Assembly: GCA_035714085.1 (NCBI GenBank)
Contig: DASTMP010000285.1
Location: 3,659-67,658 of the forward strand
Direction of reading: 5' to 3'
Source: Blastocatellia bacterium
GTDB taxonomy: Bacteria; Acidobacteriota; Blastocatellia; RBC074
DNA: 64,000 bases
Below, piece by piece: positions 5,719-31,467 of this stretch (position 1 is the stretch's first letter; each line of letters opens with the position of its first letter). A program made the translations under genes and the position numbers. A model generated the notes under the pieces. The model ran no database searches. It saw nothing but the letters and a program-made list of their open reading frames with translations, and was not told the DNA's origin.

Positions 5719-7677
5719 GCATTCTCGCTGAGAGCGGTAATGGCCATCACTGTTGTAATGTTTGGGATCATCCGATCAAACGATTATGTGAGCCTGGCGG
5801 CGTCGGCCGCCTTCGCCGCCGAACAACCGGCGCCAGGCGCATTACGGTGGCGGCAAACGTCTGGCCCCGAAGGCGCCGCCATCATCTCTCTGCTCAGCAA
5901 TGGCTCAAACCTCTTTGCAGGGACAATCACCAGCGGCGTATTTCGATCGACTGATCAAGGAGAGAGCTGGACAGCGATCAATGCGGGCTTACCCAGGTCA
6001 AGTATCAATTCGCTCGCCGCTGTTGGGACTAACATTTTCGCGGGGACTACCGGCGGCGGCGTCTTCCGCCTGATTAATCGGGAGGAAAGGTGGGTTGCAG
6101 TCAATACCGGCTTAACCAACCTGGGTATTAATGCGTTCGCCGTAAGCGGGACCTATATCGTCGCGGGAACACGTGGCGGCGTCTTTCGATCGCTAGACCA
6201 GGGTGCGAGTTGGACTCCGGTTAACACGGGCTTGCCGCCGAATGCGCTCATTGCCTTCCTCGCCGCTTCCGGGACGAACATTTTTGCGGTAACGGCTTCC
6301 CCCTCTGGCGGCATCTTTCGATCGGACGACCAGGGAAAGAGCTGGATTGCCCTCGATACGGGCTTCTCCATAGGGATTAGTCAATTAGCCGCCCTTGGGA
6401 CGGACATCTTTGCCGTGCTGGCGGACGGCAGGGTCATTCGATCGAGCAGTCAGGGAGAGAAATGGACATTGGTCAATACAGGGCTGCCACTGGGCGCGCG
6501 TGTTACTTCATTCGCCATGATCGGCGCAGACATTTATGCAGGGACATCTAGTCCCTTTATTAACAGTGGCGGGGTCAATGGCGGGATCATCCGCTCGAGC
6601 GATCAGGGAGAGAGCTGGACTGCCGTCGGTACAGGCTTGCCCCTGAGAGTGCAAGTCCTCGCCTCCGTTAGGAGAAAGCTATTTGCGGGGACGGCGGGCG
6701 GCGTCTTTCGCTCGACTAACCAGGGGGAGAATTGGACCTCAGCCAACGCAGGTATGATCGGCCAAACTGTTGAGTCGCTCGCCGTTGTTGGGTCGAATAT
6801 TTTTGCGGGTTCATCTGTCCTATCCAATGGCGGCGCCTTTCGTTCGGATAATAGCGGAGAGAGTTGGACGGCGATCAATACTGGCTTGCCGCCGAGTCAG
6901 GCGGTTTCTTCATTGGCCGTTGTCGGAACGAACATCTTTGCCGCCACAGGCGGGTTGTTAAGCGGAGTCTTTCGTTCGACAAACCAGGGAGAGAGTTGGA
7001 CTCCCGTCAATGCGGGTTTGCCGGCTAATGCTCCTGTTACCGCCTTAGCCGTGAGTGGGGCGAATCTCTTTGCGGGAATAGCCATTTCTCATCTTTCTGG
7101 CGCCGTTGGCGCCGTCTATCGTTCGACAGACCAGGGAGAGAGTTGGACGGCGGTCAATACGGGCCTGCCTGCGAATGCGAGCGTTACTGAACTCGCCGCC
7201 GTTGGGCCGAATCTCTTTGCGGCGCTATCCGTGAATATGTCAATTTTCAGCGCCGTCTTTCGCTCAAGCGATCAGGGGGAGAGTTGGACGGCGGTCGGCG
7301 CCGGCTTGCCGGCGACTGCTGTTGTTTCTTCATTCGCCGCTGTGGGGACGAACCTCTTTGCGGGAATAGCCAGCTCCACCATTTCTGGTGATGGCGATGG
7401 CGTCTATCGTTCGACCGATCAAGGGGAGACCTGGACGGCGGTTAATACCGGCTTGCCGCAGTTTGCCCTTATCGGTTCACTCGGCGCCGTTGGGACAAAC
7501 CTCTTTGCGGCGGTAGCTAATAACGGCGTTTTTCTTTCAACCAATCAAGGCGAGAGCTGGATGGCGGTCAATGAAGGCTTAACCGATCTGAGAGTTCAAA
7601 CGTTCGCCGCCGTCGGGGGGAAACTCTTTGCCGGGATGTTCGGCAGCGGAGTGTTCGTCGCTGACGTTACGAAGTGA
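5695..7677 (+). CDS. Secreted BNR/Asp-box repeat protein (Ycf48-like multi-blade beta-propeller, about 17 repeats)
   Basis: About 17 tandem units of about 43 aa, each with the S-x-D-x-G-x-(S/T)-W Asp-box motif (FRSTDQGESWTAVNTGLP...). A signal-peptide-like N-terminus follows the ATG at 5695. In-frame alternative starts exist upstream (5422, 5629, 5662). Confidence 0.75.
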   Translation: MKSFNRYAAFSLRAVMAITVVMFGIIRSNDYVSLAASAAFAAEQPAPGALRWRQTSGPEGAAIISLLSNGSNLFAGTITSGVFRSTDQGESWTAINAGLPRSSINSLAAVGTNIFAGTTGGGVFRLINREERWVAVNTGLTNLGINAFAVSGTYIVAGTRGGVFRSLDQGASWTPVNTGLPPNALIAFLAASGTNIFAVTASPSGGIFRSDDQGKSWIALDTGFSIGISQLAALGTDIFAVLADGRVIRSSSQGEKWTLVNTGLPLGARVTSFAMIGADIYAGTSSPFINSGGVNGGIIRSSDQGESWTAVGTGLPLRVQVLASVRRKLFAGTAGGVFRSTNQGENWTSANAGMIGQTVESLAVVGSNIFAGSSVLSNGGAFRSDNSGESWTAINTGLPPSQAVSSLAVVGTNIFAATGGLLSGVFRSTNQGESWTPVNAGLPANAPVTALAVSGANLFAGIAISHLSGAVGAVYRSTDQGESWTAVNTGLPANASVTELAAVGPNLFAALSVNMSIFSAVFRSSDQGESWTAVGAGLPATAVVSSFAAVGTNLFAGIASSTISGDGDGVYRSTDQGETWTAVNTGLPQFALIGSLGAVGTNLFAAVANNGVFLSTNQGESWMAVNEGLTDLRVQTFAAVGGKLFAGMFGSGVFVADVTK

Positions 7678-7740
7678 GAGTCTCGATAATAAACTGACGA
7701 AGAAACGCCGGACGGAAAAATAAAGATCTTGTAGGCTACG

Positions 7741-8160
7741 TTCTTATTTTCCTTCCGGCATTTTTCCGTCTGGCTTTCTTGCTGGTCAGCGGCGCGGAAA
7801 CGCGATACAGATCAGACAGAAAATGGAGGACAGAAAAATCGAAAAGTTCCTGCTACCTTCCCCGGCTCTTCGTCACTCACCCAGTGTGACGGGCCTCTCG
7901 TCATTCACCGCTTAAGCAAATGTACAACGCTGAGGAAACGATCTCCGTTTTTTGATTCGCGATCAAATTCCGGCTCGAAATACGAAGCGCTATAGCCGCA
8001 TCAGTGGCTTTTCTTCGAACGTTCTCCTCACGGTCAAAGTAAATATGGTTAGCGGCGCGAATTGGCCGAACAGATTTGTGATTGCGACTTCTAGGGCCTC
8101 GCTCACATTCGCGCTCCCCATACAATTAACGGCGCAGCGCGCGTAAGCGAGCGGCGCATC
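7741..8160 (+). repeat. About 420-bp conserved upstream/leader region, copy A (paralogous to 15187..15610)
   Basis: About 80% nucleotide identity to 15187..15610 by eye, including the blocks gatcagacagaaaatgga(g/a)gacagaaaaat, gatctccgttttttgattcgc and cgcgtaagcgagcggcgcatc. Both copies sit immediately 5' of paralogous TPR lipoprotein genes. Confidence 0.6.
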
Positions 8161-8218
8161 CATGCGACCGGCGATTGCTTGCCCGCGCCGTAGCGCGCCA
8201 TTCCGAGGACATCTGGGT

Positions 8219-9157
8219 ATGAAGTTTCATCTTATCGCGAAGACCACGCTCGCTCTGAGTCTTCTCGCGTCGCCTTGTCTGGCTCAGGCGCCGCTCGCCG
8301 CGCGCGATCATTTCAACCGCGGCGATTCGCTCTATCAAAAAGGCGATTTCGAGGGCGCCATCGCCGATTTCACCAAAGCCATCGAGGTCAGCTCGCGTCT
8401 GGACAACCGCAGCGGCGCCGATGATTGGCGCCGCAAGACCGGCGCGGCGTCAAATTTTGACAAAGTCAGAGCGCTCGATCCGCTGACGGCGGCGGCATAC
8501 GCCAACCGCGGGCTGGCGCGTTATCGACTCCGCGATTACGAGGGCGCTATCGCCGACTGCGACCGCGCTATCGCGATCTATCCGCGTCTCCCCGACGCCT
8601 ACAACAATCGCGGCATGGCGCGCCGCGCCATGGGGGATTTCGACCGCGCTATCGCCGATTTCGACCGCGCTATCTCGATCTATCCGAGCGCCGCCGCCTA
8701 CAACAATCGCGGCAACGCATATGTGGATAAGAAAGAGCTTGATCGGGCCCTCGCCGATTTTGACCGCGCCCTCGCGCTCGATCCGCGCCTCGCGTCGGTC
8801 TATTTCAATCGCGGCTTTGCGCGGCGCGATAAAGGGGACAACGATGGCGCAATGAAAGATTTCGACAAGATTATTGCGCTCGATCCGCGTTCCGCCTCGG
8901 GTTACTACGGCCGCGCTGTGGCGCTGTGCGACAAGAATGAATTGGACCGCGCGGTCAATGACTTCAATCGCGCCATCGAACTCGATCCGCGCTATGCTCT
9001 GGCTTACGGGAACCGCGGGCTGGCTTTGCTGCGGCAAGGCAAGGGCGCCGACGCCGAAAAGGATTTCGAGCGCGCCGTCGCGCTTAGGCCGGGATTAAAA
9101 ACGGAACTGGAGTCGGACATCGAGCAAACCAAGAAATGGAGGCGAACGAACCGGTAG
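8219..9157 (+). CDS. TPR-repeat lipoprotein (paralog A)
   Basis: Signal peptide plus lipobox (MKFHLIAKTTLALSLLASPCLAQA), then about 8 TPR units (AYNNRG.A....DYD.AIADFDRAI.LDPR). About 80% aa identity to the 15746..16687 product. Confidence 0.8.
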   Translation: MKFHLIAKTTLALSLLASPCLAQAPLAARDHFNRGDSLYQKGDFEGAIADFTKAIEVSSRLDNRSGADDWRRKTGAASNFDKVRALDPLTAAAYANRGLARYRLRDYEGAIADCDRAIAIYPRLPDAYNNRGMARRAMGDFDRAIADFDRAISIYPSAAAYNNRGNAYVDKKELDRALADFDRALALDPRLASVYFNRGFARRDKGDNDGAMKDFDKIIALDPRSASGYYGRAVALCDKNELDRAVNDFNRAIELDPRYALAYGNRGLALLRQGKGADAEKDFERAVALRPGLKTELESDIEQTKKWRRTNR

Positions 9158-9350
9158 CTACAAACGCGCAAACCTGGATCAAACGACCACAGGAAGATAC
9201 ATCTCTCGCTCTGTTTTTTCTGTCCGGCGTTTTTCCGTCTGGTTCTCTTGCTTTCTGCGGCGCCGTCGGCAAAGATCAGCGGCGCAAAAAGACGGTAAAG
9301 ATCGACATTCGTCAGTTCTGGAGGGGGAGGCGAGGCCATGGCATTGAACT

Positions 9351-10109
9351 ATGTCGGCCTCTACTTCAAACCAAAAATCAGTTCAGGCGGCGGCCGGCTG
9401 CTTCACATCGACGCAGTGGAGCCTGGTGTTGGCCGCGGGACAGCGTTCGACGCCCGAAGCCGAGCAGGCATTGGCAAAATTGTGCGGCGCCTACTGGCCG
9501 CCGATTTACGCCTATCTGCGGCGGAGAGGATACTCGGCGCCGGAGGCTGAAGACCTGGCGCAGAGCTTCTTCGTCCGACTCTTGGAGAAGAACTATCTGC
9601 GGGACGCCAATCCTGAGCGCGGCAAATTTCGATCATTCCTGCTGGCCTCACTCAAACATTTTCTCGCCAACGAATGGGATCGCGCACAGGCTCGGAAACG
9701 CGGCGGCCAATTTCAGTTCATCGGCCTGGAAGAGATCGCCGCGCAAGAGAACGAACGCCGCCTTGATCCGTATACCCTGACCCCGGAAGAACAATATGAA
9801 CGGCAATGGGCGCTGACGGCGCTCAATCGGGTGATTGCGCGGTTGGGAGAGGAATATAAGGCCGCGGGCAAAGCGCGTCTTTTCGACCACCTGAAGGACT
9901 TTCTGATCGGAACCGACGGCCTGCCTTACCAACAAGTGGCCGTCTCTCTGGAGATGAGCGAGGGGGCCGTTAAAACGGCTGTTCACCGCTTACGCGGCCG
10001 CTTTCGCAAACTGCTGCGCGCGGAGATCGCGGAAACTCTCCCGCATCCCGATAACCAGGATGAGGTCGATGGAGAGATTCGCTACCTTCTCAAGACGCTC
10101 AGTTCATAA
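9351..10109 (+). CDS. ECF-type RNA polymerase sigma factor (sigma-70 regions 2 and 4; kinase-associated ECF group)
   Basis: 252 aa. The region-2-like segment is ...YWPPIYAYLRRRGYSAPEAEDLAQSFFVRLLE... and the region-4 HTH is ...LPYQQVAVSLEMSEGAVKTAVHRLRGRF.... A Ser/Thr kinase gene follows directly. Confidence 0.8.
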   Translation: MSASTSNQKSVQAAAGCFTSTQWSLVLAAGQRSTPEAEQALAKLCGAYWPPIYAYLRRRGYSAPEAEDLAQSFFVRLLEKNYLRDANPERGKFRSFLLASLKHFLANEWDRAQARKRGGQFQFIGLEEIAAQENERRLDPYTLTPEEQYERQWALTALNRVIARLGEEYKAAGKARLFDHLKDFLIGTDGLPYQQVAVSLEMSEGAVKTAVHRLRGRFRKLLRAEIAETLPHPDNQDEVDGEIRYLLKTLSS

Positions 10110-10291
10110 AATTTTCTCTCCTCGAACTGTAACCTTTAACGCAGTTTGCTTCAGTAAGAAGTGTAATCGTCTTCCATATTCCGTTTTCCATTTTCCGTTT
10201 GTCATGTGTTATTGCGCGTCCTTTTGGTTCCGGCAATGACAAATGTCAAGCGCAAAGTGGAAAACGGAAAATGAAAAAGGAGGGCCATTCG

Positions 10292-11782
10292 ATGACTAAA
10301 TCTGGTCTCTGTCCACGCTGTCAAGGCGCATTAACCGAGGATGCCCCAGCCGGTTTGTGTCCGAAATGTCTGATGGGAATGGCGCTCGAACTCTCGTCCG
10401 AGCCTTCTGAAAGCCTATCAGCCGCGGGGCCAGTCGGCGCGCGCGCCGCGGACGCGACGATCGCTGAGAGCGACCGATCTTTCGGCGATTACGAGTTATT
10501 GGGACGGATCGCGCGCGGCGGGATGGGTGTGATCTACAAGGCGCGGCAGGTCTGTCTAAATCGCGTTGTCGCAGTCAAGATGATGTTGCCCGGACTGCTC
10601 GTCTCCGAAGCCGAAGCGAGTCGATTCCAGAACGAGGCCGAAGTCATCGCCAACCTGCGCCATCCCAATATTGTGGCTGTTCACGAGGTGGGCGCGCACG
10701 ACGGCCAGCGCTATTTCTCGATGGACTACGTCGAGGGGCAAAGCCTGGCCGCGGTCGTCAGAGAACATCCGCTTCCGGCGCGGACCGCGGCCCGCTATGT
10801 CAAGGTGATCGCCGAAGCCATTCATTACGCGCACCAGCAGGGCATTCTGCACCGCGATTTGAAGCCGTCGAACGTGCTGCTGGACAAAGCCGGGAATCCG
10901 CGCATCACCGACTTCGGTCTGGCCAAGCGATTGTCGAGCGATTCGCGGCTGACCGCCACGGGGACGGTGCTGGGCACGCCGAGCTATATGCCTCCGGAAC
11001 AGGCCGACGGCAAAAGCAGACGCACGGGGGCGGCCAGCGACGTCTATTCGATCGGCGCGATCCTTTACGAACTGCTGACAGGTCGCCCGCCGTTTCAAGC
11101 GGCGACACCGCTCGACACCATCCTTCTCGTCATCAACACGGAACCGATCGCGCCGCGAATGCTCAATCCGAAGCTCTCCCGCGATCTGGAGACGATCTGT
11201 TTGAAATGTCTGGAGAAGGACCCGCGCTGGCGATATCAATCGGCGCAGGAGTTGGCTGACGATCTCGACCGCTACCTGAAGCGTGAGCCAATCAAGGCGC
11301 GGCCCATCAGCCTCTTAAACCGCGGCTGGCGCTGGTGCCGGCGTAATCCGTGGCAGACCACGGCCGCCGTCGCTCTGGTCCTGGCGACTTTGATGGCGTC
11401 GCTCTGGGCCATCGCGTCTCAGCGGATAGCGATTATTTCCAGGCAGATTCCCTGGCAATCGTTGTTTGAGCAGGTCCAATCAGGGCGGGTCGCGGGCGAT
11501 CACACGGAGTCGCTCAAGGCGCCGGCCGAGGCTACCCCTGTCAAAAGCCCTGACGGTCGGCTGCTCGCTTCGAGCGGCCAGGATCATCGCACAATTCGAC
11601 TGCTGGAAACCTCGACCGGACGTGAATTGGCCCAATGGGAGGCCCACCGGGTCGGAATTACCGCGTTGGCCTTCAGCCCGGATGGCCGCACACTTGCCTC
11701 CGGAGGCGCGGACGGAACGATGAAGTTGTGGGACCTCTCTTCCATCCGCCGCGAGTTGGGCGGCAAAGAATTTGATCGGTAG
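10292..11782 (+). CDS. Ser/Thr protein kinase with N-terminal zinc-ribbon and C-terminal WD40 repeats
   Basis: AGGAGG RBS 8 nt before the ATG at 10292. The N-terminus is CPRCQGAL...CPKCLMG. Hanks kinase motifs are present: VAVKMM, HRDLKPSNVLL, DFGLAK, SYMPPE. A TM segment follows, then WD40 units (SPDGRLLASSGQDHRTIRL..., SPDGRTLASGGADGTMKLWD). Confidence 0.85.
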   Translation: MTKSGLCPRCQGALTEDAPAGLCPKCLMGMALELSSEPSESLSAAGPVGARAADATIAESDRSFGDYELLGRIARGGMGVIYKARQVCLNRVVAVKMMLPGLLVSEAEASRFQNEAEVIANLRHPNIVAVHEVGAHDGQRYFSMDYVEGQSLAAVVREHPLPARTAARYVKVIAEAIHYAHQQGILHRDLKPSNVLLDKAGNPRITDFGLAKRLSSDSRLTATGTVLGTPSYMPPEQADGKSRRTGAASDVYSIGAILYELLTGRPPFQAATPLDTILLVINTEPIAPRMLNPKLSRDLETICLKCLEKDPRWRYQSAQELADDLDRYLKREPIKARPISLLNRGWRWCRRNPWQTTAAVALVLATLMASLWAIASQRIAIISRQIPWQSLFEQVQSGRVAGDHTESLKAPAEATPVKSPDGRLLASSGQDHRTIRLLETSTGRELAQWEAHRVGITALAFSPDGRTLASGGADGTMKLWDLSSIRRELGGKEFDR

Positions 11783-12497: not shown

Positions 12498-13565
12498 ATG
12501 AAAGCGCGAAGTCGGATTTTCCTATTGACAGTTCTCTTGATCGTATTTTTGTGGCCTAACCAGAAACTAACAGCCTCCACTAGCCAGGCCGAAGCTCAGT
12601 TATCCGCGCCAGTCCGCATTAGCGACGATAACGGCTTCGACGAAGATCCATCGGTATTGCTCGCCCGGGATGGCCGGTTTTACGTGGCTTGGTCGTCGAA
12701 GCGGCAAAGCGGAGTCAATATTTACATCAAGAGTTCAGCGGATGGACAGAACTGGTCCACCGAGGAGCGGGTGACCGGCGGTCCCGGCGAAGACTACTAT
12801 CCCTCCCTTGCGCAGACCAGGGATGGTACGTTTCACATCGCATGGCACCGGCTCGAACGAGCGCAGGCAGACATTGACATTTGGTATTCGCGCTCGCAGG
12901 ATGCGCGAACCTGGTCAGTCCCGGTACAAATCACCACTAGTCCGAAAGTGGAATGGGCGCCCAGCATCCTCGCGGATTCGAGCGACGCTCTACACATCGT
13001 CTGGTCTTCAGGTAAGACTGGCAATCGGGAGCTGTACGAATCCCGGTCTGATGATGGCGGCCTCTGGTGGGCTCCCGAGAGGCAGATCACGCATAGCGCT
13101 GAGGAGGACGATTTCCCTCAGATGATCGAAACACGCCAAGGGGAAAAGATTCTGGCGTGGACGCGGTACCGGCAAGGATCGCTTCTGTGCGACTACATCA
13201 GCGACACCTCGGCTGAGATTGTGATCTCGCGATCGTGGGACGGGTTGAATTGGTCCGTTCCTGAAGTGTCCTCACCGAAGGATGAAAAGTGGCGCCAGAT
13301 GGACTTCCTGCCATTTGTCTTCGAAGACGCCGGCAGCCGACAGTTGTATCTCAGTTGGACATCCTCGCGATCCAATAGCTTGGGCAACATTCTTCTGCGC
13401 AACCTGGCGGCGGAACAGTCAGTTTACAGCCTTCTCACCATCGAGCGGACGAGGGACTACGACGCGAAGATCGCGCCGACTAAAACCCCAGGTCAATATC
13501 TTATGGTATGGGTCTCGGACCGTGAGGGAGCAATAGAGATCTATTCCCGGACTTTTCAACTATAA
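12498..13565 (+). CDS. Secreted BNR-repeat (sialidase-like beta-propeller) protein
   Basis: Signal peptide followed by repeated S-x-D-x-G-x-x-W motifs (SADGQNWS, SQDARTWS, SDDGGLWW, SWDGLNWS). The repeats are spaced as in 6-bladed sialidase/BNR propellers. Confidence 0.65.
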   Translation: MKARSRIFLLTVLLIVFLWPNQKLTASTSQAEAQLSAPVRISDDNGFDEDPSVLLARDGRFYVAWSSKRQSGVNIYIKSSADGQNWSTEERVTGGPGEDYYPSLAQTRDGTFHIAWHRLERAQADIDIWYSRSQDARTWSVPVQITTSPKVEWAPSILADSSDALHIVWSSGKTGNRELYESRSDDGGLWWAPERQITHSAEEDDFPQMIETRQGEKILAWTRYRQGSLLCDYISDTSAEIVISRSWDGLNWSVPEVSSPKDEKWRQMDFLPFVFEDAGSRQLYLSWTSSRSNSLGNILLRNLAAEQSVYSLLTIERTRDYDAKIAPTKTPGQYLMVWVSDREGAIEIYSRTFQL

Positions 13566-15186: not shown

Positions 15187-15610
15187 TTGATGGTCTCATT
15201 TTCCTGTCTGATCTCGTTTCTTTATCAGCCAATCGAATAGATCAGACAGGAAAATGGAAGACAGAAAAATTGAAAAATTCCCGCTATCTTCCCGGCCTCT
15301 TCGCCAAGCGCCCTTTGTGACTGACCTCTTCGCCGTTCACTCATTGAGCTAATGTCCAGCGCCGAGTAAATGATCTCCGTTTTTTGATTCGCTATCACAT
15401 TCTCGCCTGAAATACACAATGAACAGGTCGCATCAGCAGCTTTTCTCCGAACGTTTTCCTCGCCGGCGGAGTAAATATTTTTAGCGGCGCGGATTGGCTG
15501 AACAGACTTGCGATTGCGGCTTGCGGCGGCCTCACTCACATTCGCGCTACCAAAACAATCAACCCACCGGCTCGCGTAAGCGAGCGGCGCATCACGCGAC
15601 CAATGCCCGC
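15187..15610 (+). repeat. About 420-bp conserved upstream/leader region, copy B (paralogous to 7741..8160)
   Basis: See copy A. Copy B has an extra about 110 bp before the start codon, which contains a perfect-stem hairpin at 15680..15729. Confidence 0.6.
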
Positions 15611-15745
15611 TTACCCAGGCCGTAGTGCGCCATTACGTGGAGTCGTTCATTCTGCGGTGAGCGACGCCATAAAAGAATGAAACCTCGCCAAGTAGGCGCC
15701 GAATAATTTCGGCGTCTACTTGGCGAGGTTTCGGAGGAGCTGGGT

Positions 15746-16687
15746 ATGAAACTTCACCTTATCGCGAAGGCTGCGATAGCTCTGAGTCTTCTTGCGTCGC
15801 CTTGTCTGGCTCAGGCTCCGCCCGTCGCGCATGATCATTTCGCCCGCGCGGGGTCGCGTTACCAGAAAGGCGATTTCGAGGGCGCGATCGCCGACTTCAC
15901 CAAAGCCATCGAGATCAGCTCGCGTCTGGACAACCGCCAACGCGGCGATGATTGGCGCCACGAGACCGGCGCGGCGTCGAATTTTGACAAGGTCAGAGTA
16001 CTCGATCCGCTGGCGGCGGCGGCATACGCAAATCGCGGGCTGGCGCGTTATCAACTCCGCGATTACGAGGGCGCTATCGCCGACTGCGACCGCGCGATCG
16101 CGATCAATCCGCGTCTCAGCGTCGCCTACAACAATCGCGGCATCGCGCGCTACGCCTTGGAAGATTACGACCACGCGATCGCCGATTTCGACCGCGCGAT
16201 CGCGATCGATCCGCGTGACGCTGAGACCTATAACAATCGCGGCAACGTATATGTGGATAAGAAAGAGCTTGATCGGGCCCTCGCCGATTTCGACCGCGCC
16301 CTCGCGCTCGATCCGCGCCTCACGTCGGTCTATTTCAATCGCGGCTTTGCGCGGCGCGAGAAAGGGAACGACGATGGCGCGTTGAAGGATTTCGACAAGG
16401 CTATCGCGATCGATCCGCGCTTCGCTTCGGGATACTACGGCCGCGCGGTGGCTCTGTGCGACAGGAATGAATTGGACCGCGCGATCAATGACTTCAATCG
16501 CGCCATCGAACTCGATCCGCGCTATGCTCTGGCTTACGGGAACCGCGGGCTGGCTTTGCTGCGACAGGGCAAGGACGCCGAAGCCGAAAAGGATTTCGAG
16601 CGCGCCGTCGCGCTCAGGCCGGAATTGAAGGCGGAACTGGAGTTGAACGTCGAGAGAGCCAAGAAATGGAGGCAAACGAATCGCTGA
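15746..16687 (+). CDS. TPR-repeat lipoprotein (paralog B)
   Basis: MKLHLIAKAAIALSLLASPCLAQA signal/lipobox. Same TPR architecture as 8219..9157, with near-identical N- and C-terminal thirds. Confidence 0.8.
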   Translation: MKLHLIAKAAIALSLLASPCLAQAPPVAHDHFARAGSRYQKGDFEGAIADFTKAIEISSRLDNRQRGDDWRHETGAASNFDKVRVLDPLAAAAYANRGLARYQLRDYEGAIADCDRAIAINPRLSVAYNNRGIARYALEDYDHAIADFDRAIAIDPRDAETYNNRGNVYVDKKELDRALADFDRALALDPRLTSVYFNRGFARREKGNDDGALKDFDKAIAIDPRFASGYYGRAVALCDRNELDRAINDFNRAIELDPRYALAYGNRGLALLRQGKDAEAEKDFERAVALRPELKAELELNVERAKKWRQTNR

Positions 16688-18419: not shown

Positions 18420-19900
18420 CCCTGATGGCATAGCGGAGTCCTCGGAGCGGAGCCGGTGTGGGCGAGCGCAATACTATTACTCGCGTTCGCAGCGCCTTCT
18501 CTTCCGAATTTTTCTGTTTTATCGACTGGCCGATTGTGGTATAAGTGAAACGACCTGATGAAAGGCACCAGCCCCTCATCAAGTCTCACCAACGAGCACA
18601 ATGATTGAGGCATTGCACACGATGGCTCATTCTGAAGATACCACAATCAAGACTTTCGAGTTCAAGCTTCGCATCAACAAAGCCTTTGTCGAAACCATCG
18701 AGCGCGAGCTTGAACATTCCCGCCAAATCTACAACGCCGCTCTTGCCGAGCGGATCTCTTGTTACCGGATCACGGGCGCATCCCTCGGTTACAGTGAGCA
18801 ATCGCGCCACCTGACTGAAGCTCGCGACTTGCCAGAAGTAAAGAATCATTTGCGGGCAATCCAGCAAGACGCCCTTGAACGTCTCGACGAAGCTTTCGAG
18901 GGCTTCTTTCGGCGCGTTCGGAATGGAGAGAAGCCGGGATTCCCCAGATTCAAGGGCAAAGACCGCTATCACACCTTCTCGCAAAAATATGAGAAGGTTC
19001 GACCCTGCCCGATCAAAGGCGACAAACTTACGGTTCCGGGCGTTGGCACATGTCGCGTCCGGCTCTCCCGCCCGATTGAAGGACAATGCAAACAGCTTCG
19101 GATCACACGCCGTGTTGACGGCTGGTATGCTTTGATTGTTTGCGAGGCGCACAAACCTGATCCATTGCCGCCGACCGGACAGACCGTCGGAGTAGATGTC
19201 GGCATTAGCAGTTTCGCCACGCTCTCGAACGGCGAAGAGATTGAGAATCCGCGCCATCTCAAGAGCGCGCTGGAGAACCTGCAAAGACAGCAGCGGCGAC
19301 TTTCGCGCAGACAGAAGGGATCGAAGCGGCGCGCGAAGCAGAGAATCAAAGTGGCCAAGGCGCATTTGAAAGTCTCGCGCTGTCGCAAGGATTTTCACCA
19401 CAAGGTATCTCGCGATCTGGTCAGGCGTTTTGACGCAATCACGGTCGAGGATTTGAACATCCGCGGGATGGTCAAGAATCGCCGTCTCGCCCGAGCAATC
19501 AGCGACGTAGCCTGGGGGCGCTTTTTCACGATGACGAAAGGCAAAGCTGAGAACGCTGGCCGGACGTTTGAAAGAGTGGACCCAAGATACACTAGCCAGA
19601 TTTGCAGCAACTGCGGCCACCGACAAAAGATGCCGCTAGCCGTTCGTGTATACGAATGCGGCAAGTGTGGATTTGTAATAGGCCGTGATCATAACTCTGC
19701 AATCACGATCGATAGGGCTGGGCAAGCCCGAATCAACGCCCGTGGAGAGCGACAGCGTTCAATGAAGCGGGAACACGTTAGCAGAACTCAGTTGGAACCC
19801 CGGCAGGGTGGGAACTGAGCGCTATTTCTGCGAACGCGACGCCAACTTTCTATTCAATCAGCCGGTGATCGACGCGCGCAAGCCGCTGAAATCAATGTCC
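18420..19900 (+). mobile_element. IS200/IS605-family tnpB-only insertion sequence (IS1341-like); ends not resolved
   Basis: A full-length TnpB gene with no tnpA (Y1 transposase) gene nearby. The flanking 200-400 bp non-coding segments are placed as the LE/RE and the omegaRNA region. The boundaries are estimates. Confidence 0.35.
18601..19818 (+). CDS. tnpB: TnpB (OrfB) RNA-guided endonuclease of an IS200/IS605-family element
   Basis: RuvC-I (VGVDVGISSF), RuvC-II (ITVEDLNIRGM), a zinc finger (CSNCGH...CGKCGF) and RuvC-III (IGRDHNSAITI). Length about 400 aa, typical of TnpB. Confidence 0.85.
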   Translation: MIEALHTMAHSEDTTIKTFEFKLRINKAFVETIERELEHSRQIYNAALAERISCYRITGASLGYSEQSRHLTEARDLPEVKNHLRAIQQDALERLDEAFEGFFRRVRNGEKPGFPRFKGKDRYHTFSQKYEKVRPCPIKGDKLTVPGVGTCRVRLSRPIEGQCKQLRITRRVDGWYALIVCEAHKPDPLPPTGQTVGVDVGISSFATLSNGEEIENPRHLKSALENLQRQQRRLSRRQKGSKRRAKQRIKVAKAHLKVSRCRKDFHHKVSRDLVRRFDAITVEDLNIRGMVKNRRLARAISDVAWGRFFTMTKGKAENAGRTFERVDPRYTSQICSNCGHRQKMPLAVRVYECGKCGFVIGRDHNSAITIDRAGQARINARGERQRSMKREHVSRTQLEPRQGGN

Positions 19901-20037: not shown

Positions 20038-20706
20038 ATGCCTTTAGCCAAAAAAACACAAACCTGGATCAAGCGACCGCAGGAAGATAAGTTCCTCGAT
20101 CTGATGGTACAGAGCGAGATGCGCGTCTGGTCAATAAGCGGGCCGGGCGGAGCCGGAAAATCCAGCCTACTTCAGAAGTTTCTGGAGCATTGCAAAGCGC
20201 AGGAGGTTCCCGCATTGCTGCTAGATCCGTCGAAAGAAACGACCGATCATGCGACAACCGTTCTGAGCAATCTGCATTCGGTCTCAGCCGCAAATTTCAA
20301 GACCACGCAGGAAAAACTCAGCGAGATGTATCGCAGCGCAACCGCCATCGCCGGAGAATACGCTCCGCAGGCCGAAAACGCCTGGGCGTTGCTGCAACAG
20401 GCCGAAGAGGACAAAAACCTTGGCCTGGTTCTTTCGACTGTCAAAGGGTTGGCCAAGCTCGGCTATCAGGCGTACAAATCCGAAGAGATGCAGCGGCTCA
20501 AGAAGCTTGCGCAATCGCCCGAAGAGTCGCTCTGGCGCGCCTTCAAAGAAGACGTTGAGAACAAAAAGCATGGCGTGATCCTGATCGACACTTACGAAAA
20601 GTCGGTTTCGGCGCAATGGCGCAGCCGGTTGCGATTCGCCCAGGATGGGGATTTCAGCACGCCGCAGGGGAAATATGAGGATCGGCCTTATCAATTCAGA
20701 GAGTAG
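20038..20706 (+). CDS. STAND/AAA-type P-loop NTPase, N-terminal portion, ending at an in-frame TAG
   Basis: Walker A (ISGPGGAGKSSLLQKF) and Walker B (HGVILIDTYEK). The TAG at 20704-20706 is in the same frame as the 1035-aa TPR ORF starting 36 nt downstream. Confidence 0.6.
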   Translation: MPLAKKTQTWIKRPQEDKFLDLMVQSEMRVWSISGPGGAGKSSLLQKFLEHCKAQEVPALLLDPSKETTDHATTVLSNLHSVSAANFKTTQEKLSEMYRSATAIAGEYAPQAENAWALLQQAEEDKNLGLVLSTVKGLAKLGYQAYKSEEMQRLKKLAQSPEESLWRAFKEDVENKKHGVILIDTYEKSVSAQWRSRLRFAQDGDFSTPQGKYEDRPYQFRE

Positions 20707-24104: not shown

Positions 24105-25997
24105 ATGTTGTTAAAGGTTTCGATTCTCTGTCTCCGGGTGGCAAAAAAATCTCTCTTCTTTGCTTCCCTTCTTTTCCTTCTCTTCATCTTGCCGGCGACG
24201 AACGCAGTCGCGCCTCCTTCATCGCCGTGGTCTGCGAAATTCGATGGCAAAGTCTATTTTCACCAGACAACCGAGCTTGGCGCGTTGATCGTCGGAACTG
24301 AAAAATCGCTCTACGCCGTGGACGGCGAAACGGGCGAAGTGTTGTGGCGTCGCAAGGACGTTCGGTTGGACGAATCGGACGTCGCGCCAGTCGTCGGCAC
24401 CGACCTGCTTCTGCTCAGCTACGAGAAAGGCGGGAAAACCCGCGTAGAGGCAGTAGATCTGATGGCGGGCAATACGTTGTGGCGCAGCGATAAGATCAAA
24501 GGCGGCGTGATGCAGATGGCTGTCGATCCGGAGAACGATCTGGCCGCTGTCGTTTTCGTTCGTGACGCTAAGGCCGGGCCGAGAGAGGGCTTCAAACGAC
24601 GCCCGTCGATCCATCTGCTGAACCTGGCCACGGGCGACGAGTTGTGGAAGCGCGATCTGGAGAGCGAGGTCGAGATGACGCCTGCCCGGTGGAACGGAGA
24701 CGGCGACGAGACCTTCTACACGCTCGACAATTACCGCGCGCCGTTTTTCCTGGACGGCCGGTTGTGGCTCTTTTACGAAGGCGTGACCTCGCTGGACGCT
24801 CGTACGGGCAAAGAGGGAATCAGAGAGAAGTTTCGCGTCAATGAAGAAGGATTGGCGTTGACCGAAGCCGATCCGGTCATTGACGCGCGGAATATTTATG
24901 TGTCGGGGCGCGGGCAGGTTCGAGCGATCTCTCGCGCGACCGGGCGCGAGGCCTGGGAAGCGAAAGACCTTGGGTTAACGCCGGAGATGATTCTGGCGAG
25001 CGGTCTGCTTTTTGTCCGAACCGGCGGCCGGTTCACGCGATTGAAAGACGGCGAGGTCGTAGAACGCGGGCCTTACGGCGTCAGCGCGATTGATCCGTCG
25101 AACGGAAAAATCCTCTGGCGTTATCGCGGCGCAGACAAAGGCATCTCCAACATCGCGCTGGCCGACGCTTCAACAGCGCTCGTCGCCGACCACGACGAGT
25201 TGATCGCGATCGACAAGTCGAGCGGCAAGGTCGTCAAACGTCTGAAACACCGCATCGACCGCGCCGCCTTCGTCCTGATCAACGAAGAGAGGCAGGCCGT
25301 TGTCGGCGGGCGCAATGAGATCGCGGGGTTCGACGTCGCTCGCGGCGAGGCTGTCTGGCGCGTCCGTCACGACCCGCCGGGGCGCGGGGTTCTGCGAACT
25401 GTCGGGTCGATCACGGCTCGCGCCGCCTCGATTTATTTTCGCTACGGCGGGGTCGCGACGACCGCCTTTCGCGGCGTTCAACTCGCGCGCGGCGTGAGCG
25501 CGCTCCGGTGGTCGGGAGTGGCTTCGCGCGCGGTTATGCCGAACCTGACCGATTACGCCGCCGGCGCCGCGCGGGAATATGTTACGTCACAAATAAAAGG
25601 CTACGGCGTCATCTCGCGCGCCGACCTCGCGCGCCGGGCGGTCGGCGCGGCGCAGTCGCAGACGATCTCGGCGCAAATTTCAGTCAACGTCGACGTCGAT
25701 GTCGAGGATAGGTTGATGGATCGGCTCGATCCCTCACGCCAACTCGACAAACTGTCGCGCTTTCTGTGGCGGCGACAACAACTGGCCGCCCTGCGCGGCC
25801 AGTTTATGTATTTTTACACCGAGTTGAAGCCAGAAGGCGGGCGAGGATTGGCAGGCGTCAATCTGAACACGGGCCAGACGGAGCGGGCAGTCGCGTTGGA
25901 TGACCTCGATTACCGGTTCTCAAATGACGAGATCGCCGAGCTGATTTACGTCGCGAAAGATAATCGTTTGACGGCCCACAAGATCATCTCGCGTTGA
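24105..25997 (+). CDS. Secreted PQQ-like (BamB-type) beta-propeller repeat protein
   Basis: Signal peptide from the ATG at 24105. The motif G-(E/N/D)-x-LW(R/K) recurs about every 40-60 aa (GEVLWRR, GNTLWRS, GDELWKR, GREAWEA, GKILWRY, GEAVWRV). In-frame upstream extension to 23934 is possible. Confidence 0.7.
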   Translation: MLLKVSILCLRVAKKSLFFASLLFLLFILPATNAVAPPSSPWSAKFDGKVYFHQTTELGALIVGTEKSLYAVDGETGEVLWRRKDVRLDESDVAPVVGTDLLLLSYEKGGKTRVEAVDLMAGNTLWRSDKIKGGVMQMAVDPENDLAAVVFVRDAKAGPREGFKRRPSIHLLNLATGDELWKRDLESEVEMTPARWNGDGDETFYTLDNYRAPFFLDGRLWLFYEGVTSLDARTGKEGIREKFRVNEEGLALTEADPVIDARNIYVSGRGQVRAISRATGREAWEAKDLGLTPEMILASGLLFVRTGGRFTRLKDGEVVERGPYGVSAIDPSNGKILWRYRGADKGISNIALADASTALVADHDELIAIDKSSGKVVKRLKHRIDRAAFVLINEERQAVVGGRNEIAGFDVARGEAVWRVRHDPPGRGVLRTVGSITARAASIYFRYGGVATTAFRGVQLARGVSALRWSGVASRAVMPNLTDYAAGAAREYVTSQIKGYGVISRADLARRAVGAAQSQTISAQISVNVDVDVEDRLMDRLDPSRQLDKLSRFLWRRQQLAALRGQFMYFYTELKPEGGRGLAGVNLNTGQTERAVALDDLDYRFSNDEIAELIYVAKDNRLTAHKIISR

Positions 25998-26997
25998 CCT
26001 TTCCGACTTTCTTCTCCAGTTTCTTTACGGCGTTCTGCGCCACAGAGGCGTAATGGCCAGACGTGCATTGGCGGTAAGCTTCGAGCGCCTGCTGCAGTTG
26101 GTTCATTCTCTGGTAGGTCTGACCGATTAGATAGTAAATGTTCTTGTTATCCGGATCGAGTTTCTTGACTTGCTCGAATTCCTGCAGCGCCTCCTGGTGG
26201 CGGCCGGCGTTCATGTACGTGATTCCCTGCTCCAGACTATGTTCGGCGCTGGTTCCGTCGGCGGCCGGCTTTTCATGCGGAGTCGCTGGCGTGGGCTTTG
26301 CGACAGCTTGCCGCTGAGGATTTGAGCCGGCCTCGGCGTTATGAACCGCGGGTGATCTGACTTCGCTGATAGAGGGACCGGGTTGTGGCCCGGTTTGCAG
26401 TTGAGCTTGATTGTTCGCGCCGGCGCCGGATTGCTGATTGGATTGCTGATTAGATTGCTGGGCGATGGGCTGCGCCGACGTTGATGGTTTGGCGTTGTCG
26501 GCTGTCCGCATCCCGGCTTGAGCTTCAGGCGCCCTGCGCGAGTGGATAAAGAAGAATGTCCCTGCCGCCAGCGCCACTAAGGCCACTCCGCCAAGCGCCG
26601 CGGCCGACGCCAATTTCTTCCGCCCTCCCGATAGCCTTCCCGCCGGCCCTCCTGATGGTTGGACCGACGGCTGGTTTGCAGGCGCCGGTTCAACGCGTTT
26701 TGGTCGCGACTGTGTGACAAAAGCGTCTGCGATAACCTCCGTCGCCCTCTCTTCAGCCCGCGAAGTTGTCGCCGTTATCGGCATTTCTTCCGTTGCGTAG
26801 GAAGACGCCTTTGACTCCGGAAGTACTTCTGTAGCGTAAACTGTCTGATCAGTCTGTTCGCCGGGTAAGGGCCTGGTCTCTTGCGCGGTTACGTCAACGG
26901 GCTCCACGACGCCCACAGTCGCGCCACAAGTCGTGCAAAACTTCGCCCCTGCTTTGGTCAAGGCGTTCCCACATTGTTTGCAAAACTTCTTTGTCAT
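25984..26997 (-). CDS. Zinc-ribbon / single-TM / C-terminal TPR protein (hypothetical)
   Basis: N-terminus CKQCGN...CTTCG is a zinc ribbon. A low-complexity linker and a TM helix (AAALGGVALVALAAGTFFFI) follow, then a Q/N-rich segment and 2-3 TPR units. Confidence 0.5.
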   Translation of the reverse strand: MTKKFCKQCGNALTKAGAKFCTTCGATVGVVEPVDVTAQETRPLPGEQTDQTVYATEVLPESKASSYATEEMPITATTSRAEERATEVIADAFVTQSRPKRVEPAPANQPSVQPSGGPAGRLSGGRKKLASAAALGGVALVALAAGTFFFIHSRRAPEAQAGMRTADNAKPSTSAQPIAQQSNQQSNQQSGAGANNQAQLQTGPQPGPSISEVRSPAVHNAEAGSNPQRQAVAKPTPATPHEKPAADGTSAEHSLEQGITYMNAGRHQEALQEFEQVKKLDPDNKNIYYLIGQTYQRMNQLQQALEAYRQCTSGHYASVAQNAVKKLEKKVGKVNAR

Positions 26998-27149
26998 GGC
27001 TCGTCCTTTCCGAGTATCTGTGGCGTCTCAAATTATTTTCAGCCTTCAGACGCCCCGCTGCTTCTAACAGTATTAGGTGGAATTAGCCCGTATTAGGCAA
27101 CGATACATCATTCAATCAGACAGTAAAACATCAACATTATTGGAGAGGA

Positions 27150-27578
27150 ATGCAAATGAAAAGATTTTTGATCTTCGCAGCCTGTGTCTTAGCTTATCTG
27201 ACCTCGATCTCGGTATTAGCGCAAGAACCGCAGGGCCAGCCAAACCCCCGCAAGCACGGCGGCCCAAACGGAGAAAAGAGGATGAAGCGCATGGACATCA
27301 ATAACGACGGCGTGATTTCGCGCGATGAATGGAAAGGCAAACCGGAAGCCTTCGACAAGATCGACAAGAACGGCGACGGCAAACTCACACGCGAAGAGTT
27401 AGGCGAGGCTGCGCGCCGACAGGCCGGACGTTTCGATGAAATGGACACGAACAACGACGGTAAGATTTCCCGCGACGAATGGAAGGGTCCTCCGAAACGA
27501 TTCGATCGCCTCGACGCCAATGGCGACGGGGTGATCACGAAAGAAGAGCTCCGCAGCGCCCGTCAAAACCGCCATTAA
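27150..27578 (+). CDS. Secreted EF-hand calcium-binding protein (4 EF loops)
   Basis: Signal peptide, then four canonical 12-residue loops (DINNDGVISRDE, DKNGDGKLTREE, DTNNDGKISRDE, DANGDGVITKEE). Confidence 0.8.
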   Translation: MQMKRFLIFAACVLAYLTSISVLAQEPQGQPNPRKHGGPNGEKRMKRMDINNDGVISRDEWKGKPEAFDKIDKNGDGKLTREELGEAARRQAGRFDEMDTNNDGKISRDEWKGPPKRFDRLDANGDGVITKEELRSARQNRH

Positions 27579-27581
27579 AGA

Positions 27582-27710
27582 CAGAGAGCGGGAGAGCGGG
27601 AGAGCGAGAGAAGAGGAGGCAGGTTGAGGGGAAGAAAACTGTCGATCTCCTTGTCTCTCCATCCCTCGCTCTCCCGCTCTCCCGCTCTCCCACTCTCTCG
27701 CTCGCTGTAC
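27582..27710. terminator. Long GA/CT-rich palindrome between convergent genes (bidirectional terminator candidate)
   Basis: gagagcgggagagcgggagagcgagaga ... tctccatccctcgctctcccgctctcccgctctcc form an about 30-bp stem around an about 40-nt loop. It lies between the stop codons of the EF-hand gene (+) and the transaldolase gene (-). Confidence 0.5.
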
Positions 27711-27717
27711 CAGCGCG

Positions 27718-28374
27718 TCACTGTTTGATCTTCTCCCAATCTTTCAGGAAATTGGCCAAGCCGATGTCAGTCAGCGGGTGTTTAAGCAACTGCTCAAGCA
27801 CCTTGAACGGCATGGTCGCGATGTCCGCGCCGAGTCGGGCCGATTCGATCACGTGCAGCGTATGGCGGATGCTGGCCGCCAGAATCTGGGTGTTGAATCC
27901 GTAGTTGTCGTAAATCTCCCGAATCTCTCCGATCAATCCCATGCCTTCGTGGCCGATGTCGTCGAGACGACCGATGAACGGGCTAACGAAAGTCGAGCCT
28001 GCTTTCGCCGACATCAGCGCCTGCGTGGCGTTGAAGATCAGCGTCTGATTGATGCGGATGCCCTCTTTTGACAGCGTGTGCGTGGCCTGCAATCCGGCTT
28101 TGGTCATCGGCAGTTTGACGTAAACGTTCGGATGGATTTTCGCCAGTTCGCGGCCTTCAGCGATCATGCCGTCGTATTCGGTGGCGACGACCTCGGCGCT
28201 GACCGATGCGCCCTCCCAATTGAGGATTTCGCAGATTCTCAGAATGTGCTCCTTAAAATCCACGTTGCCCTCTTTGGCGATGAGCGACGGATTGGTCGTC
28301 ACGCCGTCGAGTATTCCCAGACTCGCCGCTTCACGAATCTCTTTCAGATTTGCGGTATCGACAAAGAACTTCAT
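27718..28374 (-). CDS. Transaldolase / fructose-6-phosphate aldolase (short TalC/FSA-type)
   Basis: 218 aa. The sequence [10 protein letters not shown]...GVTTNPSLI...VKLP.T..G......L...GI..N.TLIF.....L.....GA..VSPF.GR is the TalC/FSA subfamily signature. Confidence 0.85.
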
Positions 28375-28463
28375 TTTTTACTCCTCCAAAAATCACTGGG
28401 AGCGTCATGGACAGGACTTATTAGACTCTTAAGACCTATAAGTCCCAGTATCGGGAGCGCGCA

Positions 28464-31380: not shown

Positions 31381-31467
<87 letters not shown>

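Follow-up and report, generated by a model that had tools for sequence, protein, structure and literature searches.

Two paralogous genes for tetratricopeptide-repeat (TPR) proteins, each preceded by a copy of the same non-coding block of about 390 nucleotides (nt), lie on a 64-kb stretch of DNA from an uncultured soil member of the Blastocatellia (Acidobacteriota). We call this whole stretch the window and give all positions in its coordinates; L numbers denote loci fetched for comparison. The preliminary description had read 7741-9157 and 15187-16687 as a segmental duplication comprising coding and non-coding DNA. The two regions do form a single collinear alignment of paralogues on the same strand, 7.4 kb apart, and one of the copies is missing at the corresponding site of a relative (L084). 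The borders, however, are tighter than described. By BLAST and global alignment the homology starts at 7809 and 15239 rather than at 7741 and 15187, and it ends at the stop codons, 9157 and 16687. BLAST of the upstream parts against the window gave their mutual match, 7809-8209 with 15239-15641 at 77.7% identity, and neither this search nor an nhmmer profile of the block revealed a third copy in the 64 kb. The features that make up the two modules are as follows.

7809..9157, plus strand: module copy A (non-coding block and TPR gene), in collinear homology with 15239-16687
7826..8212, plus strand: non-coding block, copy A, 387 nt (nhmmer profile match 7827-8209, E = 6.7e-122)
8219..9157, plus strand: TPR gene A, 312 amino acids (aa), signal peptide and about 7 TPR repeats (Pfam TPR_1, E = 5e-62)
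15239..16687, plus strand: module copy B, in the ancestral position (gene order common to related contigs)
15257..15644, plus strand: non-coding block, copy B, 388 nt (nhmmer match 15258-15643, E = 1.3e-117)
15746..16687, plus strand: TPR gene B, 313 aa, signal peptide and about 7 TPR repeats (Pfam TPR_1, E = 7e-61)

The true starts of the two genes are ATG 8219 and ATG 15746, since this start is kept in all orthologues; the start that an open reading frame (ORF) finder placed at ATG 8162 for copy A was rejected as part of an unconserved upstream extension. Protein B occurs unchanged on Joint Genome Institute (JGI) soil-metagenome contigs with the same gene order (the samples that contain the contig itself are 3300037153 and 3300036841), and its closest relatives, at 73-81% identity, come from four Blastocatellia species represented by metagenome-assembled genomes (MAGs). 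The products had been called lipoproteins, a label that finds no support. Taking [LVI][ASTVI][GAS]C with an invariant Cys as the lipobox, judged by sequence with no dedicated predictor, the residues A-S-P before the Cys do not form one, and the Cys is replaced by Gly in the orthologue of L005. The sequence around the Cys reads LLASPC followed by LAQAP (LSLPGLAQAP in L005), and a signal peptidase I-type site, A/C-L-A before Q, is kept among the orthologues. The product is more likely a secreted or periplasmic TPR protein than a lipoprotein, and its gene is a fast-evolving one, equipped with a signal peptide, in a narrow Blastocatellia clade.

Distribution of the block

The block accompanies this gene well beyond the window. 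At all three MAG species loci with upstream sequence (L004, L005 and L006) it stands directly before the TPR orthologue. A 31-nt degenerate pattern taken from the most conserved stretch of the block retrieved 20 soil-metagenome contigs, and on 16 of them, or 16 of the 17 long enough to judge, a TPR orthologue follows in the same orientation. Fifteen of these genes are intact or run to the contig end and one, in L093, is disrupted; among the remaining four contigs three are too short to tell, and in L099 another gene lies behind the block. After 78 codons the L093 orthologue runs into an in-frame stop, and part of its interior is deleted; it is either a pseudogene or an assembly error. In L099 (73-1306) the place of the TPR gene behind block and spacer is taken by a different ORF (MAIYTNCGISRARKF...), which by eye only resembles a carboxymuconolactone-decarboxylase or AhpD-type protein.

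Elsewhere the searches came back empty. The 31-nt pattern had 0 matches in viral contigs, and the nhmmer block profile found nothing further in about 1.1 Mb of fetched loci, including 80 unrelated ones. Acidobacteria loci with TPR proteins of 34-48% identity (L008, L011, L032, L079, L104) carry no copy of the block, and two contigs with 51-52% identical TPR genes (JGI 3300078620) have upstream gaps of about 590 nt. Block B aligns with the copies of other species over its full length at 77-83% identity with 1-4 gap positions, and block A aligned with 19 other copies gives a mean column identity of 86%. Within the sequences searched, the block is thus restricted to a narrow Blastocatellia clade.

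Because the block nearly always stands before a TPR orthologue and nothing turned up elsewhere in the fetched loci, it is not a dispersed repeat; the preliminary description had allowed for one that is unrelated to TPR genes, and the linkage on 16 of 17 judgeable contigs and in three MAG species speaks otherwise. The wider proposal, that the block is a dispersed repeat, a non-autonomous mobile element or a gene for a small protein, we consider very improbable. It can draw on the occurrence of the module in three genomic contexts, on inverted TTTTCYGTC repeats at the borders with palindromic inserts nearby, and on a 104-aa antisense ORF that the JGI gene callers annotated in the block of copy B. 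Against this, the window holds just two copies, the 80 unrelated loci and the viral contigs hold none, and the 20 metagenome hits are nearly all linked to the TPR gene. In most of the 20 sequences the antisense frame is interrupted, lies shortly behind a stop and lacks a start codon, and it was rejected as a gene. All six frames of the block contain stops, three-base periodicity is absent (column entropy by phase 0.48, 0.47 and 0.44), and pN/pS (nonsynonymous over synonymous differences) is 0.6-1.0 in every one of the six frames, so that none has the low value of a coding signature; neither a conserved start nor a codon-position pattern was found, and a pseudogene was rejected along with a small protein. 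An 11-codon plus-strand ORF (ATG TCC AGC ...) was also discarded, as it meets a premature stop in copy B.

The border repeats deserve a description of their own. The clearest of them is found at copy B:

15197..15256, no strand assigned: perfect 18-bp inverted repeat of the TTTTCCTGTCTGATC motif with a 24-nt loop (I2, 100% complementary)

I2 is placed immediately behind the stop codon of the upstream gene, at block B's left edge. The TTTTCCTGTCTGATC motif pair recurs at the same position in L085, L092, L093 and L097, with one arm in L098, and a related inverted pair lies to the left of copy A (7704-7777). More generally, ATTTTTC(T/C)GTC and its complement form clusters of inverted hairpin pairs at the left borders of both modules (7704-7839 and 15197-15270) and to the right of copy A (9214-9241). 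The Blastocatellia loci contain the motif about 8 times as often as the remaining fetched loci do, for the most part at this left border. Its nature might be that of a terminator-like or protein-binding repeat, and recombination at such repeats may have produced the duplication. We also considered a mobile element with terminal inverted repeats and rejected it: TTTTCYGTC brackets copy A but not copy B, which has no matching right-hand repeat, and the right-hand TTTTCYGTC at A belongs to the duplicated target. The TTTTCYGTC hairpins on the left and the nested palindromes between block and ribosome-binding site are reminiscent of repetitive extragenic palindromic (REP) sequences and miniature inverted-repeat transposable elements (MITEs). 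Unlike these, the 390-nt block is non-palindromic, is present once per TPR gene and is not dispersed.

Constraint on the block

The earlier figure of about 420 bp of upstream DNA at about 80% identity was accurate. In the global alignment of the two intergenic regions the homologous core has 306 matches, 86 mismatches and 11 gap positions, that is an identity of about 78%, a divergence p of 0.219, or 0.26 after Jukes-Cantor correction. The coding regions are 89% identical in nucleotides (11% differences) and 82% in amino acids, with pS 0.187 and pN 0.089; of 135 four-fold sites, 13.3% are different. The A-B divergence of the block is therefore about twice that of the whole coding region and slightly above that of its synonymous sites. 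The earlier claim of similar divergence in coding and non-coding parts was wrong, and the argument built upon it, that non-coding DNA evolving no faster than the gene implies constraint, falls with it; moreover, the coding similarity on which it leaned is inflated by probable gene conversion, to which we return below.

Orthologues give another picture. The block is less diverged than the synonymous sites of the TPR gene in 117 of 136 lineage pairs (means: block 0.200, pS 0.270, pN 0.111). Over 15 lineages its diversity is 0.163 against 0.232 at four-fold sites, a ratio of 0.70, and neighbouring genes have a pS of 0.25-0.34 against 0.19-0.22 for the block. Invariant columns make up 46% of the block and 35% of four-fold sites, a difference for which Fisher's test gives p = 0.11 with only 66 four-fold sites at hand. 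The invariant columns of the block are strongly clustered: the variance of counts in 20-nt windows is 15.4 as opposed to 4.7 in permutations (p < 0.0005), and the longest invariant run in the block is 12 where 7.2 is expected. Conservation is accordingly patchy, with near-invariant stretches of 10-40 nt (GAGGAAACGATCTTCGTTTTTTGATTCG; CCGAACGTTTTCCTC; AGTAAATAT..TTAGCGGCGCGGATTGGCCGA; CTCACTCACATTCGCGC are the most conserved; in copy A, 7930-7965 and 8010-8070 are near-invariant) and variation near the synonymous rate between them. The alignable length of the block is 375-388 nt, with 1-4 gap positions, whereas its left flank and the spacer to the ribosome-binding site are completely different between lineages. 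The spacer between the TPR gene and the neighbouring glucose/sorbosone dehydrogenase (GSDH) gene can be aligned only in two short pieces, and the 715-nt spacer between the kinase and BNR355 genes not at all.

It could be held that the upstream DNA has no function and merely rode along, its conserved look arising from the close kinship of the organisms. The A-B divergence of the block at or above the synonymous rate would agree with this, as would the neighbouring proteins, mostly 83-93% identical between the compared genomes, all of them close relatives, and the non-significant excess of invariant sites. We nevertheless regard this explanation as improbable, given the lower divergence of the block in most lineage pairs, the clustering of its invariant columns, and its near freedom from indels next to a left flank, a 3' spacer and two other intergenic regions that are rearranged or unalignable. 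The orthologue data thus support purifying selection on the block, moderate and uneven in strength, so that the earlier conclusion of non-coding constraint stands although the reasoning offered for it does not. The comparison of the paralogues was misleading because gene conversion had lowered the coding divergence, and it was the comparison of orthologues that gave the answer.

Structure and promoter signals

The preliminary description had suggested a structured 5' leader or cis-regulatory RNA, and looking for covariation and RNA structure in the leader brought up nothing beyond weak local hairpins. At gathering thresholds Rfam 15 finds only a tRNA at 31381-31464 in the whole window, and even at E <= 10 only chance microRNA-type matches in 7650-8260. 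The RNAalifold consensus has 75 pairs with a covariation term of only -0.56 kcal/mol. Pair counting gave a covariation score of 0.101, equal to that of shuffled alignments (0.101, reached by 245 of 500 shuffles), and 4 pairs carry double changes where 2.1 are expected (reached by 47 of 500 shuffles), in an alignment whose power for covariation is low, as its sequences are about 86% identical and only about 14% variable. Copy A folds no better than its dinucleotide shuffles, with z-scores of -0.19 (plus strand) and -0.78 (minus strand). Consensus folding energies of -55.8 (plus) and -61.2 (minus) compare with -43.3 +/- 5.5 for column shuffles and are only about 2-3 standard deviations lower, on both strands. 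The best of 14 local windows, plus-strand columns 51-170, reaches z = -3.4 with a structure conservation index of 0.45, and a second plus-strand window z = -2.6; the index is 0.45-0.53 in the best windows. A structured regulatory RNA in the block is therefore unsupported by these analyses.

These results bear on the idea that the block is transcribed together with the TPR gene and gives its mRNA a structured cis-regulatory leader, either of riboswitch type or switching so as to sequester the ribosome-binding site; the invariant CGUUUUCCUCG, for instance, would have two alternative pairing partners, the upstream CUGAGGAAACG and the GAGGAG ribosome-binding site. The block is on the strand of the gene and directly adjoins it in four lineages, a 14-pair long-range helix can be drawn between highly conserved stretches (columns 116-131 with 205-220), a hairpin at columns 139-155 undergoes A-to-G changes that keep U-A or U-G pairing on the plus strand, and the two plus-strand windows beat column shuffles somewhat. 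Yet covariation is at the level of the shuffled control with only the 4 double-change pairs, folding of the single sequence is unremarkable, the minus strand has a consensus energy equal to or better than that of the plus strand, no Rfam family appears, and the index is 0.45-0.53 in the best of the 14 windows. Complementarity of 9-14 bp within 390 nt is expected by chance, and large variable inserts separate the block from the ribosome-binding site. Such a leader is unlikely in our estimation.

A second possibility is that a small RNA gene, independent of the TPR gene and no more than its neighbour, occupies the whole block or only the leftmost ~130 nt, up to the conserved GAAACGAUCUUCGUUUUUU hairpin and U-run. 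The sharp left border, the variable distance to the gene and the different gene in L099 speak for this, as does a conserved weak hairpin followed by a T-run (columns 122-138) that falls in the best folding window. The hairpin, however, consists of only 5-7 mostly A-U pairs and fails a terminator scan, no promoter was found, and there is no covariation. The TPR gene is linked in the same orientation at nearly every locus, and block and gene have moved jointly to three contexts (the B type, copy A and L098). We rate a separate small RNA gene as rather improbable. Taking both forms together, an undescribed RNA element of a narrow Blastocatellia clade, either a long leader through which the TPR mRNA's translation or stability is controlled or an autonomous small RNA, with an alignment too shallow for covariation to appear, is a doubtful but conceivable alternative.

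Two weak promoter candidates emerged, a -10-like TACAAT at columns 308-313 and TATNGT at columns 232-237. In L005, the most distant orthologue and our outgroup, the conserved part stops about 45 nt short of the ATG, at an ACAAT / TACAAT hexamer that resembles a -10 element. A candidate for a sigma factor of the extracytoplasmic function (ECF) class, GAAC-N17-AGTAAAT, is invariant and occurs in the window only at the two copies; reading it as an ECF-type promoter was set aside as speculative, and it is absent upstream of the ECF sigma gene too. Two further candidates were rejected, a sigma-54 site TGGCC-N9-TTGC, whose GG-to-GC spacing is 2 nt too long and whose GC is unconserved in copy A, and an FNR/CRP-type palindrome TTGAT-N5-ATCAA, with the wrong spacing and a right half that is altered in half of the sequences.

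The region between block and ribosome-binding site differs from the block in character. At copy B it contains:

15645..15745, plus strand: spacer between block B and ribosome-binding site, about 95 extra bases, with a hairpin inside
15679-15732, plus strand: spacer hairpin with 25-bp arms (inverted repeat I1, 96% complementary)

The first ~45 nt of the spacer (GGAGTCGTTCAT...GAATGAAA) are common to many orthologues; the spacer is missing in copy A, L097, L004 and L005, where the block directly abuts the ribosome-binding site. As most orthologues have this first part, copy A has lost the spacer, and the extra bases are not an insertion specific to B. The same part looks like a decayed duplicate of the gene's 5' end. 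Other lineages carry variable palindromic inserts that differ between loci and are flanked by direct repeats of CCATTYCCGAGGAG, and the distance from the search pattern to the ATG varies from 128 to 432 nt. This gap is a hot spot, where different nested palindromes 95-250 nt long have been inserted, as in L006, L090, L091, L093, L096 and L099.

History and regulatory reading of the module

Copy B lies between the gene of a 536-aa protein and the GSDH gene. The order kinase, BNR355, 536-aa protein, block, TPR and GSDH is shared in whole or part with L087, L097, L085, L092, L095, L101, L006 and L004, which places copy B in the ancestral position. Copy A is found between a BNR-repeat gene (BNR751, stop at 7677) and an ECF sigma gene (start at 9351). 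In L084 the corresponding distance from BNR751 stop to ECF sigma start is 117 nt and the module is absent, so that copy A, with a total of about 1.56 kb, is a lineage-specific secondary insertion. It is bracketed by a 49-nt direct repeat, and the following features document its history:

7747..7795, plus strand: 49-nt direct repeat, left copy (BLAST 83.7% over 49 nt)
9216..9263, plus strand: 49-nt direct repeat, right copy, continuous with the native intergenic sequence of L084
8710..8809, plus strand: probable gene-conversion tract between the coding regions (A-B divergence 0.03)

Just after the stop of TPR gene A, 59 nt (9155-9213) are 80% identical to 20045-20103 (31 nt at 94%), which is the start of a 222-aa gene at 20038. 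This suggests that pieces of the B-side locus were combined to form the inserted A segment.

A third context occurs in L098, where the module follows a 130-nt 3' remnant of an ECF sigma gene and precedes DNA homologous to window positions 25805-28440. Among the informative sites of the block 50 group A with L098 and 12 group A with B, whereas the 3' half of the coding region unites A with B. Over 8710-8809 the divergences A-L098 and B-L098 are 0.15-0.16, against 0.03 between A and B, and part of the coding region was probably homogenised by gene conversion. The grouping of block A with the copy of another organism implies a duplication that predates the split from the L098 organism, which argues against the very recent duplication proposed earlier; the coding regions look younger than the block because of the gene conversion.

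Several observations concern the further evolution of the copies and their surroundings. Protein A has been the faster of the two (pN to most orthologues 0.11-0.14, versus 0.09-0.12 for B) and block A the slower (0.17-0.19 to orthologues, versus 0.19-0.22 for block B). The neighbours of the module include an ECF sigma gene and its partner, a Ser/Thr kinase-WD40 gene (9351-11782). The sigma gene of L084 breaks off at codon 84 and continues into the block-TPR-GSDH region. The ECF sigma and module region is prone to rearrangement, and a regulatory link between the ECF sigma factor and the TPR gene is conceivable. The BNR355 gene (12498-13565) has a pS of only 0.09 to L087 and L100, compared with 0.26-0.30 for its neighbours at similar protein identity; recent exchange between lineages or unusual synonymous constraint are possible reasons. 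About 1.9 kb downstream of TPR gene B lies a full-length 405-aa TnpB-like ORF of the IS605 OrfB type (18601-19818, plus strand), a region called as fragments on JGI contigs, one of them with the Pfam domain Cas12f1-like_TNB.

We think it probable, on the strength of these comparisons, that an older duplication carried the gene together with its own promoter and leader region, and that the block is the control region of the gene. Block and gene would have been duplicated as one unit of 1.35-1.45 kb. Copy B would have kept the ancestral site and copy A would have been inserted secondarily between the BNR-repeat and ECF sigma genes, in an event older than it appears, after which coding stretches were homogenised by gene conversion. 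The block would then act in cis, comprising regulator-binding sites, the core promoter and a 5' leader to the ribosome-binding site, and a working copy of the gene would have had to bring it along. Patchy conservation and the joint movement of block and gene make promoter, regulator-binding sites and 5' leader the best explanation, and the conserved part of L005 that ends at a -10-like hexamer fits this as well. Because no canonical promoter was found, we infer the promoter and leader step, as we do a regulatory role with TACAAT and TATNGT as candidate promoters.

A number of points weigh against a control region. Neither block A nor block B has a canonical sigma-70 promoter on either strand at >= 9/12, and under relaxed settings the only matches were weak ones, present in 6-7 of the 20 sequences. 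A length of about 390 nt is considerable for a bacterial promoter and leader. In most lineages the palindromic inserts (95-250 nt) split the block from the gene, and the block of L099 precedes a different gene; either observation would suit a self-contained unit as well, for example a small RNA gene. Constraint is modest overall (0.70 of the four-fold rate), and the excess of invariant sites over the 66 four-fold sites is not significant (p = 0.11).

Known systems offer several parallels. Ordinary paralogue evolution, in which genes duplicate with their promoter and 5' untranslated region and later undergo gene conversion, likewise yields two collinear copies, here 7.4 kb apart and including the upstream region, and the empty site for copy A in a relative, the flanking direct repeats and the conversion tract in the coding region all agree with it; what differs is an unusually long upstream region (~390 nt) that is conserved across species. 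Long 5' regulatory regions are familiar in bacteria, in the form of riboswitch, T-box and attenuator leaders and of the multi-input upstream regions of csgD and flhDC. As in these, the block is non-coding, on the same strand, upstream of one gene and conserved in patches, but unlike the leaders it shows no Rfam match, covariation, excess folding stability or recognisable terminator or anti-terminator. In Acidobacteria, candidate structured RNAs, the Acido-1 and Acido-Lenti-1 motifs, were reportedly found by comparative genomics by Weinberg et al. in 2010 and are said to be defined by covariation. They resemble the block as intergenic non-coding conservation in Acidobacteria discovered by sequence comparison, whereas the block lacks covariation and, if these families are in Rfam 15, matches neither of them at E <= 10, nor does the window at gathering thresholds.

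We found no paper on the block or on promoters in Blastocatellia. The best reading of the feature is a real, uncharacterised and clade-specific regulatory element, apparently ordinary in kind and with no new mechanism demonstrated. A methodological point also follows, in that here orthologues, and not the paralogues within one genome, revealed the constraint. Almost nothing is known about gene regulation in the Blastocatellia, and in Acidobacteria generally, though these organisms are abundant in soil and few have been cultured. In this context the block provides a defined non-coding element: its borders are clear, 20 distinct copies of it have been aligned, its gene partner is fixed, and several of its motifs are near-invariant.

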